Shown piece after piece: positions 7,511-50,817 of a stretch of 64,000 nucleotides of DNA (its first letter is position 1; the number at the start of each line of letters is the position of its first letter). This stretch comes from Escherichia phage ECML-4. The position numbers were made by a program, and so were the translations under genes. The notes under the pieces are model-generated. The model worked only from the letters and a program-made list of their open reading frames with translations, ran no database searches and had not been told where the DNA came from. The DNA lies in the sequence record JX128257; one strand, given 5' to 3'.

Positions 7511-7521
7511 AATTAGAACAA

Positions 7522-7552
7522 CAAAGGGGCTTAATGCCCCTTTGTTTATTTC
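7522..7552. terminator. bidirectional rho-independent terminator between convergent genes
   Basis: CAAAGGGGC-TTAAT-GCCCCTTTG followed by TTTATTT; lies between the stops of 6965..7510 (+) and 7546..8004 (-). Confidence 0.6.
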
Positions 7553-8004
7553 CCATCCCAAAAGTCGTCTTCATCGTCTACTTCATCAAACGCAGAATCC
7601 AATTCTGCGTCAGAGTACTCTGGTAGACGACCATTCTGTTTCAGATATTCAATTTCGTCATCTTCCAATTGAAGATCCGTTGCTATAAACAGCGCTCCGG
7701 TCTCTTCATCATGTTCAATGCTATAAGACGTATATTCAGAACCCTGAACTGTAATGATGATAGATGTTGGATCTTCTGGATCCACGTGAGCTTCAAACGG
7801 GATACCGTCAATTGGGGCGTCTTCTAAGAATGTTGCAAGGGCTACGGCAGCGCGGACAACATCCGTACCCTGTACCGATGCATAAATTTCTTCTGCGCCC
7901 GTTTCCCCGCGCTCAAAGAATTCAATCGTAGTTCCGTCTTGAACCCCAGTCCAGATAGGCATATCTGCTGGTGTATCGGCTTCAAATAATTTTGAAATTG
8001 GCAT
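7546..8004 (-). CDS. highly acidic protein (152 aa)
   Basis: Very high D/E content throughout (e.g. C-terminal SAFDEVDDEDDFWDGK); last gene of a four-gene minus-strand operon. Confidence 0.6.
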   Translation of the reverse strand: MPISKLFEADTPADMPIWTGVQDGTTIEFFERGETGAEEIYASVQGTDVVRAAVALATFLEDAPIDGIPFEAHVDPEDPTSIIITVQGSEYTSYSIEHDEETGALFIATDLQLEDDEIEYLKQNGRLPEYSDAELDSAFDEVDDEDDFWDGK

Positions 8005-8039
8005 GTTCGTTTCCTCTATGGATAAACCTTATGGGATAT

Positions 8040-8489
8040 TTAGGCTTCTCTCTTCGCCAGCCCTGGTTTGAATACCACCATTTCTTCTACGTTATTGGCA
8101 CTCATAGAGGCTATGGAATCGAATCCTTTATTGATAAGTTCCTTCACATTATCGTGAATCTTACCAGGTTCTATCCCCAACTCACGCATTTTGTTTTCCC
8201 AAACAGAAACGTTATTAGAATCTATTACCAGAGTCTTCTTGGCCTTAACACGAAATGCCATGACAACAGGTTCACCAGATTGACGATAGCGAACGGCGTT
8301 TTCCGCGTAGATCTGCGCTTTTTCTGGATCCCCTGTCAGGTAAAATCCAGCACCCATCGTACCAGAGTCAGTCTGGCCAAATTTTTCAAAATCAAAGACG
8401 TCGAATTCAACATTCGACCCATGATATAAAACAATATCCGTAAAATCGGGCAATGTTGATTCACGATAGAATTCTAGGAAGGTTTTCAT
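8040..8489 (-). CDS. putative ADP-ribosyltransferase-like protein (H-Y-E type, tentative)
   Basis: Ordered motifs LYHGS ... GAGFYLTGD ... EEMVVF resemble the H-G-S / aromatic / catalytic-Glu pattern of PARP and diphtheria-toxin-like ARTs. Motif-level only. Confidence 0.3.
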   Translation of the reverse strand: MKTFLEFYRESTLPDFTDIVLYHGSNVEFDVFDFEKFGQTDSGTMGAGFYLTGDPEKAQIYAENAVRYRQSGEPVVMAFRVKAKKTLVIDSNNVSVWENKMRELGIEPGKIHDNVKELINKGFDSIASMSANNVEEMVVFKPGLAKREA

Positions 8490-8528
8490 GGATACCCCAC
8501 ACTTGCTGTATGGGGTATTTAGGAGGGA

Positions 8529-20080: not shown

Positions 20081-20120
20081 CTAAATACCCCTAGATGACA
20101 TGAATACATTTAGGGGTATT
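20081..20120 (+). promoter_or_regulatory. late-promoter-like CTAAATA box embedded in 10-bp inverted repeat
   Basis: CTAAATACCCCTA ... TAGGGGTATT immediately upstream of ATG 20125. Confidence 0.5.
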
Positions 20121-20124
20121 ACAA

Positions 20125-23306: not shown

Positions 23307-23345
23307 GCCTAAATACCCCATATTGGTCATCCTTTATGGGGTATT
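23307..23345 (+). promoter_or_regulatory. late-promoter-like CTAAATA box embedded in 11-bp perfect inverted repeat
   Basis: AATACCCCATA (23312-23322) and TATGGGGTATT (23335-23345), 3 nt before ATG 23349. Confidence 0.55.
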
Positions 23346-23348
23346 ATC

Positions 23349-25842: not shown

Positions 25843-25881
25843 CCTAAATACCCCATATTGGCAAATCCTTTATGGGGTATT
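25843..25881 (+). promoter_or_regulatory. late-promoter-like CTAAATA box embedded in 11-bp perfect inverted repeat
   Basis: AATACCCCATA (25847-25857) and TATGGGGTATT (25871-25881); same arms as the element at 23312-23345. Confidence 0.55.
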
Positions 25882-45620: not shown

Positions 45621-47303
45621 ATGGCTGGATACGGCAGAGGGTTCTTCGGTTTGTTTGGCGGCGGCGGTTTGGTGAACGCTAAAGTCGACACCGATAAGTT
45701 AGCCCAAAAACAAGATGAACGGTTGCTAACCAAAGCGACAGTTGTTGCTCTGGACGACGCTCAAGACGGTTCTATAATCCTTCAGGGTGGTGCGAACACC
45801 TACAACTATGTTGGCGTTGAAAGTGAACTTCTCAGCGTTAAAACAGTTGTGGAAGAATATCAGTCCATGGCTCAACAGCCTGAAATTCGCAAAGCGGTGG
45901 ACATTATTGTCAATGATGTTGTCACCTGTGAGGAAGATGAAACTCCAGTGACAGTAAACCTTGACAAAGTTGAAGGGATATCTGATACTGTTAAAGAATC
46001 TATCACTGAATGCTTCAAAGAAGTTATGCACTTGATGGACTTTGACAATACGGCATATCAGAAGATCCGGAAATGGTATGTTGACGGTCGACAAGCATAT
46101 CATGTCATCGTTGATCCCACGAATAAAAAAGGCGGGATCAAGAAATTGGTTATGCTTGATTCTCGTTGCATTCGTCCTGTCTATATCGTTGAGAAGGCGA
46201 TGCGTGAAGGCGGTATTGAAGCAATAGAATCTGTAACATTGAAGTATTATTACAACCCGAATTATAATCGAAACCAATTCACTGGCCAATCTGGTACTTC
46301 CCAGAACTTCCAGCCTTCACAGCAAGAACTCGTATTCGATGACGAAAGCATTGTTTACATCGATAGTGGTGAAGAGCCATTGGCCAATGGTATTGTCCCA
46401 GGCCTTTTAAATCCTGCTATCCGTCCGTTGAACAACCTGGTTACGACTGAAGATGCGACTGTAATTTATGCCATCACTCGCGCCCCTGAGAAACGCGCAT
46501 TCTATCTTGACGTCGGTACTCTCGGTAAGAAATCTGCTGAAGAATACATGACCATGATGATGGGTAAATTCAAAAACCGCAACGCATATGACCGCACCAC
46601 TGGTAAGATAACAGGTAATGCCCATCTTATGGGTATTGCAGAGGATTATTGGTTGCCGCGCCGCGAAGGTCAGAATGCTACAGAGATCGCGACTGTTGGG
46701 GGTGGGAATCAATTGGGTGAAATGGATCACGTGAACTATTTCCGTGAAAAACTCTATGATGCTCTAATGATCCCTAAGAGCCGCCTCCAAGAGGAAGGAT
46801 CTATTAACATTGGGGGTTCTAACCTTGCGGAGATTACACAGGAAGAGCTGCGTTTCAGCAAGTTCTGTGCTGGGTTACGTCGTCGTTACTCCCATTTCTT
46901 TATGGAGTTTTTACGTCGCCAATTAATTTTAAAAGGTGTGACTGACGAAAAAGATTGGAATGAAAAAATCAAGCCGTTTATTAAGTTTGAATTCACTTCT
47001 GATAGCTATATTCGTGAGCAACAAGAAAACGCCATATTAAATGATCGCCTGGCTTCTCTGAACACTGTTGAGCCTTTTGTTGGTTCTATATTCTCCATCG
47101 ATTATGTCATGCGGAATGTTCTGCGTATGTCAGACGAAGAAGTTAAAGAACAACAGGCTAAGATCGCGGAAGAGAAGAAGAAAGGTCTCTATCCGAAGGT
47201 TCAAGCAGATGAAACTGGCAATTATAGTGGTTCAGATGTTAGTCCGTTGAAGTTTAAACCTGAGACTCTCCCATTCTCCGGTTCAACAGACGATAGTATT
47301 TAA
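45621..47303 (+). CDS. portal vertex protein (T4 gp20-like)
   Basis: Position between tube and prohead genes, size 560 aa, consistent with T4 order. Confidence 0.7.
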   Translation: MAGYGRGFFGLFGGGGLVNAKVDTDKLAQKQDERLLTKATVVALDDAQDGSIILQGGANTYNYVGVESELLSVKTVVEEYQSMAQQPEIRKAVDIIVNDVVTCEEDETPVTVNLDKVEGISDTVKESITECFKEVMHLMDFDNTAYQKIRKWYVDGRQAYHVIVDPTNKKGGIKKLVMLDSRCIRPVYIVEKAMREGGIEAIESVTLKYYYNPNYNRNQFTGQSGTSQNFQPSQQELVFDDESIVYIDSGEEPLANGIVPGLLNPAIRPLNNLVTTEDATVIYAITRAPEKRAFYLDVGTLGKKSAEEYMTMMMGKFKNRNAYDRTTGKITGNAHLMGIAEDYWLPRREGQNATEIATVGGGNQLGEMDHVNYFREKLYDALMIPKSRLQEEGSINIGGSNLAEITQEELRFSKFCAGLRRRYSHFFMEFLRRQLILKGVTDEKDWNEKIKPFIKFEFTSDSYIREQQENAILNDRLASLNTVEPFVGSIFSIDYVMRNVLRMSDEEVKEQQAKIAEEKKKGLYPKVQADETGNYSGSDVSPLKFKPETLPFSGSTDDSI

Positions 47304-47848: not shown

Positions 47849-48517
47849 ATGATGAAACTGTTGCGTGAGATCACAGCGATAGGGAAGGATCTTCAAATCG
47901 GTGAGGCCACAACCTCAACTGGTGGGAAGGCCATGTTCATCGAAGGTCCGTTTGTGATGTGTAACCAAGTCAACCGTAACGGGCGTAACTATGATCTGCA
48001 GAAAGTGGGTATTCCTGCTGTCGAAGCATACGACAAAGAGTATATCCAAGATCGTCGCGCAATCGGTGAAGTCACACATCCTGACTATCCTTTCCCTAAT
48101 TTAGTGGAAGCTGCGCTCAAAACCGAATCCCTTCGCTGGGAAGGCACTAATGCCATCGGTCGGGCGCGAATTTTAAACACACCAAAAGGCCAAATCATTC
48201 GTGCATTGGCCGAAGCAGACTTCAATCTGGCCGTATCTACTCGTGGCCTGGGTGAGACTAAGTCGGTAAGCGGTTATGATGATGTTCAGCCTGGCTTTAT
48301 GCTTACCGCCGTTGACGCAGTTGACCGTCCTTCTGGACAAGTTTGTTATGTTAAGGCTGTGAGTGAATCTGTTGAATGGCAGCTGGACGAGGCTTCGGGT
48401 ATTTGGATGCCTCGTGATGTTAAAGGGAAAGTTGTAGACCAGTTGGTGAAAGCCAATATCCAGGTTGAAGACGATTTCCTGCGCCGCCTTGATGCAGCAT
48501 TGAATCATCTGGGCTGA
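47849..48517 (+). CDS. prohead protease (T4 gp21-like)
   Basis: Position and size (222 aa) as in T4, immediately upstream of the scaffold gene. Confidence 0.65.
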   Translation: MMKLLREITAIGKDLQIGEATTSTGGKAMFIEGPFVMCNQVNRNGRNYDLQKVGIPAVEAYDKEYIQDRRAIGEVTHPDYPFPNLVEAALKTESLRWEGTNAIGRARILNTPKGQIIRALAEADFNLAVSTRGLGETKSVSGYDDVQPGFMLTAVDAVDRPSGQVCYVKAVSESVEWQLDEASGIWMPRDVKGKVVDQLVKANIQVEDDFLRRLDAALNHLG

Positions 48518-48563: not shown

Positions 48564-49403
48564 ATGAAACCTGAATTGCAAAATCTGTTTGAAGGCGTTA
48601 ACGGCATCAGCCCAGATTTCCTGGATAAAGTATCCAATTTGCTGGAATCGAAAGTTGAAGCGGCTCGTCTGAAAGCTATCCAAGAAACCGAAGCAGCTGG
48701 CAACGTCGAGCGCCTGAATCTGGTAGAATCTCACCAGAAAGAAATCGCCGACCTGAAAGAAAATTTCATTCTGCAATTGGCTGGGAAAGTTGACTCATTC
48801 CTCAACGCGGTGGTTGAAGAATGGGCTAACAAAAATGCCCCAGCTATTGACGCTCAGATCAAAACTGAAGCTGCTGAACGCTTCCTCACTGGTTTCTCCA
48901 ACGTGCTGAAAGAAGCAGGTGTGAGTTTCGCTACTGACCCAGATGGTCATATTGCCGCCCTCACCAGTCGCCTTGCTGAAGCAGAACAACGCGCCAACAT
49001 GGCTAATACAGAGTTGAGCCAACTCAAAGAAAGCGAGTCTAAACGCCAACGCACCGACGTAATTGATCGCATTTGTGAAGGCATGGTTGACACCAAGAAA
49101 GACACTGTTGTCAACCTGCTGGAAGGTATTGAATTCCAGACCGAGTCTGAATTCGAATCGCGTGTTCGCACCTTCCGTAATCTGGTAGAAGGTAAAGATG
49201 ACTTCTCTGACAAAGTCGGTAAAGACAATGAAAAGGGTAAGCCGGATGGCGACAAGGCTGAAAAAGACATCAAAGAAGGTAAGAAACAGAAAAAAGAAGG
49301 TGATGATGTTGACGACGACAAAGACGACGACGACAAAGACGAAGTTGGCAAAGAAGTCAACGAAGCCGTCCGTCGCCAGATCAGCGCCATTCTGAACGGC
49401 TAA
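48564..49403 (+). CDS. prohead scaffold protein (T4 gp22-like)
   Basis: Coiled-coil-like, highly charged protein with acidic Lys/Asp-rich C-terminus, directly upstream of the capsid gene. Confidence 0.65.
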   Translation: MKPELQNLFEGVNGISPDFLDKVSNLLESKVEAARLKAIQETEAAGNVERLNLVESHQKEIADLKENFILQLAGKVDSFLNAVVEEWANKNAPAIDAQIKTEAAERFLTGFSNVLKEAGVSFATDPDGHIAALTSRLAEAEQRANMANTELSQLKESESKRQRTDVIDRICEGMVDTKKDTVVNLLEGIEFQTESEFESRVRTFRNLVEGKDDFSDKVGKDNEKGKPDGDKAEKDIKEGKKQKKEGDDVDDDKDDDDKDEVGKEVNEAVRRQISAILNG

Positions 49404-49494: not shown

Positions 49495-50817
49495 ATGACT
49501 AAGAAACTTGTAACCGAAGAAATGCGCAAACAGTGGCTGCCAGTTCTCCAAAAAGAATCTGAAGCCATCCAACCTCTGTCTGCCGAAAACGTAACCATCC
49601 GTCTGATGCAAAACCAGGCCGAGTGGAACGCTAAAAACCTGGGCGAATCCGACGCTCCTGGTTCTGTAAACAGCACTGTCGGTAAATGGCAGCCAGTCCT
49701 GATCGACATGGCAAAACGTCTGGCGCCGATCAACATCGCAATGGACTTCTTCGGCGTTCAGCCGCTGTCTGGTCCTGATGGTCAGATCTTCGCACTGCGT
49801 GCTCGCCAAGGCGTTGGTGACGGTTCTACTACCGCTCAGGCGCGTAAAGAACTGTTCATGAACGAAGCCGATTCTGGCTACTCTGGTGATGGCACTGTAC
49901 AGGCTGGCGACCCGTCAGGCTTCAGTCAGGCTGAGATCGAAGGTTCCGGCTCTGTCGTGACCACTATCGGTAAAGGTATGCCGTCAACCGACGCGGAACT
50001 GCTGGGTACTACCACCAATCCGTGGGCGCGTGTTGGTATCACCGTTCAGAAAGCGACCGTTACTGCCAAGTCTCGCGGCCTGTATGCTGATTACAGCCAT
50101 GAACTGCGTCAGGATATGATGGCAATTCACGGCGAAGACGTGGACAATATCCTGTCTGACGTGATGGTAACTGAAATTCAGGCGGAAATGAACCGTGAAT
50201 TCATCCGCACCATGAACTTCAGTGCTGTTCGTTTCAAAAAATTCGGCACCAACGGTGTTGTTGATATCGCGCAGGACATCTCCGGTCGTTGGGCGCTGGA
50301 AAAATGGAAATTCCTGACTTTCATGCTGGAAGTCGAAGCGAATGGTATCGGCGTTGACACCCGTCGTGGTAAAGGCAACCGTGTTCTGTGTTCTCCGAAC
50401 GTGGCGTCTGCTCTGGCGATGTCCGGCATGCTGGACTATGCTCCGGTTCTGCAGGAAAACACCAAACTGGCTGTTGACCCGACTGGTCAGACCTTCGCGG
50501 GTGTTCTGTCCAACGGTATGCGCGTCTATGTTGACCCGTATGCTGTAGCAGAATATATCACCCTGGCGTACAAAGGCGCGACTGCGCTGGATGCTGGTAT
50601 CTTCTTCGCACCGTATGTGCCGCTGGAAATGTACCGCACCCAGGGTGAAACCACCTTCGCTCCGCGTATGGCGTTCAAAACCCGTTACGGCATCTGTGCT
50701 AACCCGTTCGTTCAGATTCCGGCTAACCAAGACCCGCAGGTTTACGTGACTGCTGACGGTATTGCTCAAGACAGCAACCCATACTTCCGTAAAGGTCTCA
50801 TCAAATCTCTGTTCTAA
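49495..50817 (+). CDS. major capsid protein (T4 gp23-like)
   Basis: FFGVQPLSGPDGQIFALRA, ELRQDMMAIHGEDVDNILSDVMVTEIQAEMNRE, VYVDPYAVAEYITLAYKGATALDAGIFFAPYV, AFKTRYGICANPFV all parallel T4 gp23. Confidence 0.95.
   Translation: MTKKLVTEEMRKQWLPVLQKESEAIQPLSAENVTIRLMQNQAEWNAKNLGESDAPGSVNSTVGKWQPVLIDMAKRLAPINIAMDFFGVQPLSGPDGQIFALRARQGVGDGSTTAQARKELFMNEADSGYSGDGTVQAGDPSGFSQAEIEGSGSVVTTIGKGMPSTDAELLGTTTNPWARVGITVQKATVTAKSRGLYADYSHELRQDMMAIHGEDVDNILSDVMVTEIQAEMNREFIRTMNFSAVRFKKFGTNGVVDIAQDISGRWALEKWKFLTFMLEVEANGIGVDTRRGKGNRVLCSPNVASALAMSGMLDYAPVLQENTKLAVDPTGQTFAGVLSNGMRVYVDPYAVAEYITLAYKGATALDAGIFFAPYVPLEMYRTQGETTFAPRMAFKTRYGICANPFVQIPANQDPQVYVTADGIAQDSNPYFRKGLIKSLF

Follow-up and report, generated by a model that had tools for sequence, protein, structure and literature searches.

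The window analyzed here is a 64,000-nucleotide (nt) stretch of Escherichia phage ECML-4 DNA (sequence record JX128257), and the gene under study is a small one on its minus strand, at 8040..8489. A preliminary description, prepared from the letters of the sequence, had placed there a protein of 149 amino acids (aa) with a tentative ADP-ribosyltransferase (ART) signature. Its boundaries proved exact: the gene starts with ATG and encodes 149 aa, a predicted stand-alone ADP-ribosyltransferase of the ART-PolyVal family. The three motifs that had drawn attention to it occur in the order given (LYHGS, residues 21-25; GAGFYLTGD, 46-54; EEMVVF, 135-140), and the catalytic codons are those of H23 (8421-8423), Y50 (8340-8342) and E136 (8082-8084), all on the minus strand. 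Upstream lies the gene for a decarboxylase dependent on pyridoxal phosphate (PLP; 8529..9722, minus), whose product is 97% identical to ViI gp226 (YP_004327553). Downstream is a gene for a 152-aa acidic protein (7546..8004, minus) with an isoelectric point (pI) of 4.05 and 40 D+E against 6 K+R residues. A strong terminator-like hairpin with an 11-bp stem (7520..7546, minus) appears to end this PLP - ART - acidic-protein transcription unit.

When 4 kb around the ART gene were used as query, 271 phage records matched, with Mutine, Vi01, CBA120-like phages and others at 97-99% identity; judged by sequence, the window is that of a Kuttervirus (ViI/CBA120-like, Ackermannviridae). A tblastn search with the ART protein gave 225 phage records, essentially all from Ackermannviridae (Kuttervirus, Limestonevirus, Agtrevirus and Klebsiella phages), and the gene is conserved across four genera of the family. 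Its orthologues include Vi01_183 ('phage associated protein'), CBA120 orf229 and Sajous1 gp116, the last of which is 100% identical in sequence to the ECML-4 product. The tblastn records were mostly annotated as 'hypothetical' and at times as 'putative structural protein', while 'ADP-ribose transferase', 'N-acetyltransferase' and 'DarB-like antirestriction protein' were each found for a single homologue. The UniRef cluster is named 'ART-PolyVal-like domain-containing protein'. The family assignment is already public in databases, and the core idea of the preliminary description is correct and not new.

Family, fold and catalytic site of the ART protein

The ART protein matched the Pfam family ART-PolyVal (PF18760) with 43.1 bits against a cut-off of 31.2, residues 19-143 corresponding to positions 7-128 of the 140-position model. 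It also matched DUF3990, a Pfam member of the ART clan (PMC7955679), with 32.7 bits against 32.2. The precomputed PF18760 hit was common to 20 of 20 close homologues. A word-indexed homologue search gave 20 close Ackermannviridae relatives only, and diversity was drawn from an exhaustive profile search of representatives, which retrieved 1244 of them at E<=1e-3; most of these were 1,000-7,000 residues long, and in some the ART was present in several copies. Four polyvalent proteins of 2,266-5,566 aa (P0022, P0024, P0027 and P0028) carried three or four separate ART-PolyVal-like stretches each, in agreement with the multi-copy architectures described in 2017. A search of NCBIfam with the ART protein gave no match, and a single-sequence search of the PDB gave nothing useful. 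PHROG 4700 matched and carries no annotation. PADLOC returned weak matches to PDC-M13/M42/M10 candidate systems (best E 2.5e-9), in which the N-terminal half corresponded to other DUF3990-like ARTs and which are uninformative on function.

Conservation was analyzed in 19 Ackermannviridae homologues and in 53 distant full-length domains. In the former, H23, G24, S25, Y50 and E136 were invariant. In the latter, His was found at position 23 in 53/53, Tyr at position 50 in 49/53 and Glu at position 136 in 44/53 (rest Q/H/N/T/D, with Asp in 1/53). Loss of the motif residues among homologues had been named beforehand as a reason to abandon the assignment; H23, Y50 and E136 were kept out to about 25% identity. 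Other conserved positions of the family comprise G24 (52/53), a D41-x-G43-x-x-G46-x-G48 loop before the Tyr (D41 51/53, G43 51/53, G46 52/53, G48 51/53), A58 (49/53), Y61 (49/53) and G122-[YH]-D124-[GS] (G122 53/53, D124 52/53), the near-invariant D124 opening the strand that precedes the Glu. The H-Y-E signature therefore stands with H23, Y50 and E136, whereas E135, the first residue of the 'EE' pair in the preliminary description, varies (R/K/H/V/S/N), is not conserved among the distant domains and lies outside the signature.

AlphaFold2 models were built from a 19-sequence alignment (predicted local distance difference test, pLDDT, 80.6) and from a 45-sequence alignment, A2 (pLDDT 92.7; predicted template modelling score 0.85). 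In the A2 model, H23 falls in strand 19-25 (strand 1), Y50 in strand 48-52 (strand 2, with Y61) and E136 in strand 133-139 (strand 5), an order that fits the H-Y-E clade. When the pLDDT 92.7 model was compared with known structures by Foldseek, as had been suggested earlier, it matched almost only ADP-ribosyltransferase folds: cyanophage A4 gp28, AcrIF11, tankyrases, PARP4, PARP2 and PARP1 in the PDB, with diphtheria toxin also matched, and ART-PolyVal proteins, MuF fusions and an N4-type virion RNA polymerase protein in BFVD. A profile search of PDB sequences agreed, with PARP4 (E 0.0035), diphtheria toxin (0.007) and exotoxin A (0.01) followed by PARP12, PARP10 and tankyrases. In the profile alignments, YHGT corresponded to H21 of diphtheria toxin, GFY to its Y54 and A..Y (Y61) to its Y65, while G-Y-D-S...E-x-V-V-F corresponded to 'GYDSV...DEFVVY' of PARP4, the C-terminal segment of PARP4 being weak when taken alone (i-Evalue 30). 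The assignment thus withstood both refuting conditions set beforehand, an unrelated fold and loss of the motif residues. On the evidence of profiles and models, we assign the product with high confidence to the ART-PolyVal family as an ART-fold protein with an intact H-Y-E site; it is very probably an ADP-ribosyltransferase of the diphtheria-toxin/PARP type, with predicted activity.

Virion detection, proposed N-terminal leader and late-promoter-like cassette

Two published proteomes bear on the location of this protein. In Sajous1 virions purified on caesium chloride, gp116 (the ART protein) was represented by 10 spectra and gp115 (the acidic neighbour) by 31, and gp117 (the PLP enzyme) and gp118 did not appear in the list. 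For reference, the major capsid protein had 924 spectra, the prohead protease 13, the baseplate wedge 12 and the tail completion protein 8. In LIMEstone1, ORF173 (63% identical to the ART protein) and ORF174 (the acidic neighbour) were reported as 'confirmed structural proteins' by electrospray ionization tandem mass spectrometry, with one peptide each and about 12% coverage. The papers on PhiD3 and PP35 contained no independent proteome evidence for the ART protein. Per these two proteomes, the ART protein is probably virion-associated, presumably within the head.

The first ten codons (8460..8489, minus) encode MKTFLEFYRE, which we propose to be a capsid-targeting leader in view of its likeness to the T4 capsid-targeting sequence (CTS) MKTYQEFIAE, with 6 of 10 residues identical plus an F/Y pair. 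In T4, the CTS brings the internal proteins IPI-III into the prohead core, and does so for any protein fused to it, before it is removed by cleavage. Motifs of the type [aromatic/L/I]-x-E are cleaved by the T4 prohead protease, and MKTFLEFYRE ends in such a motif. The decapeptide lies outside the Pfam ART match, which begins at residue 19; M1-K2-T3-F4 is invariant in Ackermannviridae homologues, and residues 11-18 are variable (the ECML-4 sequence from S11, right after the leader, is STLPDFTDIVLYHGSNVEFDVFDFEK). More distant stand-alone homologues begin with MKTFEQFLKE, MLTFEAYLAE, MKTFLEYITE, MRSFAEYLAE or MKGLDEYLNE. A six-frame scan of the window for MKT[FYW]x[EDQ][FYWH] retrieved two open reading frames (ORFs), namely the ART gene and a 65-aa ORF. 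In LIMEstone1 (150 kb) the strict pattern retrieved the ART orthologue only, and a looser pattern added a homologue of the small ORF. A composition-based estimate put the chance of a match to the leader pattern at about 8e-7 per protein. The window also contains a T4-type prohead core serine protease (Peptidase_S77; 47849..48517, plus), which is predicted to remove the leader, next to T4-type genes for the portal (45621-47303), scaffold (48564-49403) and major head protein (49495-50817). By sequence likeness and by analogy with T4, we hold with moderate confidence that the decapeptide would serve as a capsid-targeting leader and be removed by the protease.

The strongest support for this leader came from other viral contigs. 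Based on a narrower alignment (A3), loci of stand-alone ART homologues were found in contigs of IMG/VR, in which the ART homologue stood within a run of small, mutually unrelated genes that had one decapeptide in common, the decapeptide being phage-specific. The leader MKSFKQF... was present on four consecutive genes of contig L021, MK[GNR][LI]xE[FY][LV]NE on 5 of 15 ORFs of L028, and a shared leader on 4 of 14 ORFs of L029 and 3 of 10 of L027. Among these contigs and L025, decapeptides such as MKGLNEFLNE and MKSFKQFKTQ were observed, and array members comprised ART, GNAT and DUF6934-like proteins and several proteins without a family. One leader-bearing neighbour of an ART was a GNAT acetyltransferase, and GNAT adjoins ART inside polyvalent proteins as well (Iyer et al. 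2017, PMC5512222). In L020-L025 the array had scaffold, major-head and tail-tube-like genes at one end and uvsY/uvsW-like genes at the other, the arrays of L027-L029 lay between ribonucleotide reductase genes, and stand-alone homologues at 39-42% identity adjoined major-head and tail-tube-like genes. This layout is like that of the published T-even internal-protein loci, which is variable; a review describes the T-even internal proteins as diverse defence proteins with only the CTS in common.

The ART gene also appears to have its own late promoter. A late-promoter-like motif, CTAAATACCCC (8512..8522, minus), lies 22 nt upstream of the ATG, and another, CTAAATATCCC (8033..8043, minus), precedes the start of the acidic-protein gene by 28 nt and overlaps the ART stop codon. 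The general form CTAAATAYCCC occurred at 5 sites in the window, compared with 0.03 expected by shuffling, and these sites precede the ART gene, the acidic-protein gene and three tailspike genes. The exact CCCC form is found before ART and the three tailspike genes (20125, 23349 and 25872). For the core CTAAATA, 15 occurrences were counted where 7.4 were expected; most of them lie 25-50 nt ahead of a start codon in the same orientation. The motif is kept before the orthologues of both the ART and acidic-protein genes in Klebsiella phage RCIP0012 and in LIMEstone1, whose authors annotated it as 'putative late promoter'. CBA120-type phages encode homologues of gp55, gp33 and gp45 for T4-type late transcription.

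The motif before ART is combined with an inverted repeat, ACCCCATAC-AGCAA-GTGTGGGGT (8494..8516, minus), whose 5' arm overlaps the motif and whose 3' arm is separated from the ATG by 4 nt. Its RNA folding free energy was -14.8 kcal/mol (z -3.7), and three genera share it, their stems being identical and their loops different. ART and the three tailspike genes have this layout in common: ATACCCC(A)TA, the 3' portion of the motif, forms the 5' arm, and the 3' arm, TA(T)GGGGTAT, ends 3-6 nt before the start codon. This cassette of CTAAATACCCC plus inverted repeat was located at 8494-8522 (minus) and at 20081-20124, 23309-23348 and 25844-25871 (plus), and also at L004 3965-4000 and L003 5965-6000. 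T4 gene e and I-TevI offer an analogy for translational gating by a hairpin. By this analogy, read-through transcripts could hide the ribosome-binding region, whereas late transcripts starting inside the 5' arm would not. The cassette may be a translational gate of the gene e type, or it may mark one subclass of strong late promoters. With fair confidence, the ART protein is a late, virion-associated protein.

Proposed route of delivery and competing explanations

We propose that the ART protein is made late, targeted to the capsid by its leader, injected, and active on a host macromolecule, and we give this reading as a whole a probability of roughly 0.6. It builds on the family, the fold, the conserved catalytic residues, the promoter-like motif, the presence in virions and the occurrence of the leader in arrays. 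Transcription would start late from the CTAAATACCCC element of the gene itself. The decapeptide MKTFLEFYRE would carry the protein into the prohead's scaffolding core, as the CTS does for T4 internal proteins, and the T4-type prohead protease would cut it off after E10. The mature enzyme of about 15.5 kDa would stay in the head and, by analogy, probably enter the cell with the DNA. There it would mono-ADP-ribosylate a host macromolecule, most likely a transcription, translation or defence protein, before phage genes are expressed. The sole reason for favoring a protein target is that the closest relatives in sequence and fold act on proteins.

Several points weigh against this proposal. Position 8 of the decapeptide is Tyr, compared with Leu or Ile in the T4 cleavage motif. 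The leader is just 10 residues long, and residues 4-12 form a helix in the AlphaFold model that is possibly part of the fold. The mature protein is acidic (pI 5.06), in contrast to the highly basic character described for T4 internal proteins. As to the proteomes, the LIMEstone1 identification of ORF173 is a single peptide, the Sajous1 authors caution that low spectral counts may mean contaminants, and replication and lysis proteins are also present in their list at 1-5 spectra. The promoter assignment derives from motif position, enrichment counts and the LIMEstone1 annotation; the late-promoter consensus of ViI-like phages has been stated as not yet identified (Kutter et al. 2011), and a text search of the literature for CTAAATA gave nothing relevant. 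In the searchable literature, we located no enzymatic data for any ART-PolyVal member. Finally, the active site of polyvalent ARTs was given as H-Y-D and not H-Y-E (Iyer et al. 2017, PMC5512222). However, Glu is the canonical ART residue, so its presence on strand 5 in place of Asp is no argument against activity.

The modest counts (10 spectra in Sajous1 and one peptide in LIMEstone1) would also be expected if an active ART were made late, acted in the producing cell on phage or host proteins at assembly or lysis, and were detected by mass spectrometry as carry-over. T4 ModA and ModB are unpackaged ARTs, and the Sajous1 list includes non-structural proteins at 1-5 spectra, such as glutaredoxin, a clamp loader and RIIB. 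We nevertheless consider such carry-over unlikely: the count of 10 is within the range of the genuine minor virion proteins given above (prohead protease, baseplate wedge, tail completion), the flanking PLP enzyme is missing from the same list, two independent proteomes from different subfamilies agree, and a cytoplasmic enzyme would hardly be expected to share its leader with unrelated genes next to it. We attach a similarly low probability to an enzyme that modifies nucleic acid (the ends or bases of DNA or RNA) or just consumes NAD+, in the manner of MbcT, RES and TNT-type enzymes. It is much less probable still that the protein is a catalytically dead ART fold with a structural or binding role in the particle, comparable to the pseudo-PARPs TASOR and PARP13, since the residues lost in pseudo-enzymes are retained here, with H23 in 53/53, Y50 in 49/53 and E136 in 44/53 of the distant domains, together with the D-x-G-x-x-G-x-G loop.

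The position of the gene directly downstream of the PLP decarboxylase suggests yet another role, that of an accessory enzyme in thymidine hypermodification. ViI gp226, the close relative of the upstream product, is the PLP-dependent enzyme that forms 5-NeOmdU by decarboxylation of O-serinyl-thymidine, and the PLP gene is followed by ART in Kuttervirus, Limestonevirus and a Klebsiella phage of the Ackermannviridae alike. However, 5-NeOmdU has been reconstituted from gp67, gp160, gp226, gp243 and gp247 without the ART protein, and neither paper mentions ADP-ribosylation. The ART gene has its own late-promoter-like motif and its product was detected in virions, whereas gp226/gp117 was not. Stand-alone homologues in phages outside the Ackermannviridae have no PLP neighbour, and in LIMEstone1 the pathway gene is cut off from the upstream genes by a homing endonuclease, which shows that the region is plastic. 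As five other proteins suffice for 5-NeOmdU and homologues outside the family occur without a PLP gene, we rejected a role in DNA hypermodification, which is the least probable of the explanations; the adjacency to the gp226 gene is probably incidental.

Comparison with known systems places the proposed injected enzyme between polyvalent proteins and T4 head cargoes. With the ART-PolyVal domains it shares the sequence family, the fold and the positions of the catalytic His and Tyr. In contrast, those relatives are mostly domains of giant polyvalent proteins (1-7 kaa) of phages and conjugative elements, while the ECML-4 protein is a stand-alone one of 149 aa; its strand-5 residue is Glu, as in 44/53 relatives, compared with Asp in the 2017 description; and its delivery appears to depend on a short leader at the N-terminus rather than on being part of a large protein. 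Polyvalent ARTs have been predicted to be delivered with the invading DNA and to modify host proteins (Iyer et al. 2017, PMC5512222). T4 Alt is an ART made late, carried in the head and injected to modify host proteins, its target being RNA polymerase alpha, and we propose it as a functional analogue. However, Alt is a larger R-S-E enzyme of the Alt/VIP2 clade, to which the H-Y-E protein of ECML-4 is not homologous; the R-S-E site and the Alt sequence homology that define membership in the T4 Alt/ModA/ModB group were not found in the ART protein. ViI-like phages are without an Alt or ModA homologue (Kutter et al. 2011). The T4 proteins IPI, IPII and IPIII, which a review describes as anti-defence proteins, have an N-terminal decapeptide of the same pattern on unrelated cargoes that share the leader only and are encoded in variable gene arrays. 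They have been described as highly basic non-enzymes with about 1000 copies, whereas the ECML-4 protein is an acidic predicted enzyme with an apparently low copy number.

The remaining likenesses concern the fold. Diphtheria toxin, exotoxin A and PARPs share with the ART protein the H-G-[ST], the G-x-[FY]-Y, the second Tyr and the Glu of strand 5. The ART protein is much smaller, is without the helical regulatory domain of PARPs and the translocation and receptor domains of the toxins, and has 15-23% identity over the aligned regions. The anti-CRISPR ART AcrIF11 (PDB 6kyf) has a similar fold, did not appear at E<=10 when PDB sequences were searched with the ART profile and, to our knowledge, is not packaged in virions. 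The fold match in the ejection protein gp28 of cyanophage A4 (PDB 9k3a chain B) is an alpha+beta domain that was left unassigned by the authors of the structure. This domain belongs to a chain of 1071 residues that also has lytic transglycosylase and M23 peptidase domains, and A4 is a podovirus and does not have a T4-type head.

A broader idea, to which we lean a little less than to its opposite, is that T4-superfamily and Ackermannviridae phages deliver polyvalent-type effector modules (ART, GNAT and small domains) as separate small proteins, each with a phage-specific CTS decapeptide and encoded in variable arrays like those of the internal proteins, the ViI/CBA120 ART being an injected H-Y-E enzyme in the role of Alt that acts before phage gene expression. 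If so, the N-terminal rule M-[KR]-x-[FL]-x-[EQ]-[FY]-[LI]-x-E could be used to find injected effectors in thousands of phage genomes, and arrays with a shared leader point to a simple means of recognizing capsid-delivered effectors. The arrays would also connect the T4 internal proteins with the polyvalent proteins, as alternative ways of packaging one set of enzymatic modules. Phages of the Ackermannviridae, ViI, CBA120, LIMEstone and their relatives, are in wide use for biocontrol and diagnostics. In the searchable recent literature, including a 2024 review of the family and a 2024 proteomics paper, no ADP-ribosyltransferase was mentioned in them, and a conserved virion-borne ART would be their first candidate injected enzyme for host takeover or anti-defence. 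We found no description of the combination of late-promoter cassette, virion detection and T4-CTS-like leader, nor of ART/GNAT leader-sharing arrays, and the mode of delivery appears to be undescribed so far. If the leader idea is wrong, a well-supported and already database-annotated ART remains.

Neighbouring genes and the second leader-bearing frame

The 65-aa ORF (12470..12667, minus), the only other frame in the window with the leader, begins with MKTFGEFLAE followed by WDG (its start is MKTFGEFLAEWDG). With 7 of 10 residues identical, its decapeptide is the best match to the T4 CTS in the window. A CTAAATA core lies upstream at 12701-12707, and the ORF is located between genes for tRNA-Asn (12393-12468) and tRNA-Met (12788-12863). 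Its homologue LIMEstone1 ORF167 begins with MKSFSDYLNE. No Pfam match was found for the 65-aa product, which by its sequence is a candidate internal protein.

The acidic protein downstream of ART has its own late-promoter-like motif, is without the leader and was detected with virion counts above those of the ART protein. Searches of Pfam and the PDB with it gave no match. It could be a DNA mimic, a partner or inhibitor of the ART protein, or a capsid-internal counter-ion protein. A conserved role as partner or immunity protein of the ART was tried and rejected, as no homologue was found beside stand-alone ARTs outside the Ackermannviridae, where the neighbours were ferritin-like, DUF6934, UvsY, FGase and GNAT genes.

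On the other side of ART, a gene for a 227-aa protein (9792-10475, minus) lies between a tail-needle-knob-like gene and the PLP decarboxylase gene. The protein has a sub-threshold NDUS4-like Pfam match (E 3e-4), its counterpart is annotated as 'ETC complex I subunit' in phage Guerrero, and its Sajous1 counterpart, gp118, is not in the virion list of that phage. The gp226 orthologue itself is 397 aa long here and in CBA120, compared with 424 aa as annotated in Vi01. Its alignment to Vi01 splits in two, with about 81-87 nt missing from the window, and the proposed Schiff-base lysine, K92 in ViI numbering, is K65 here.

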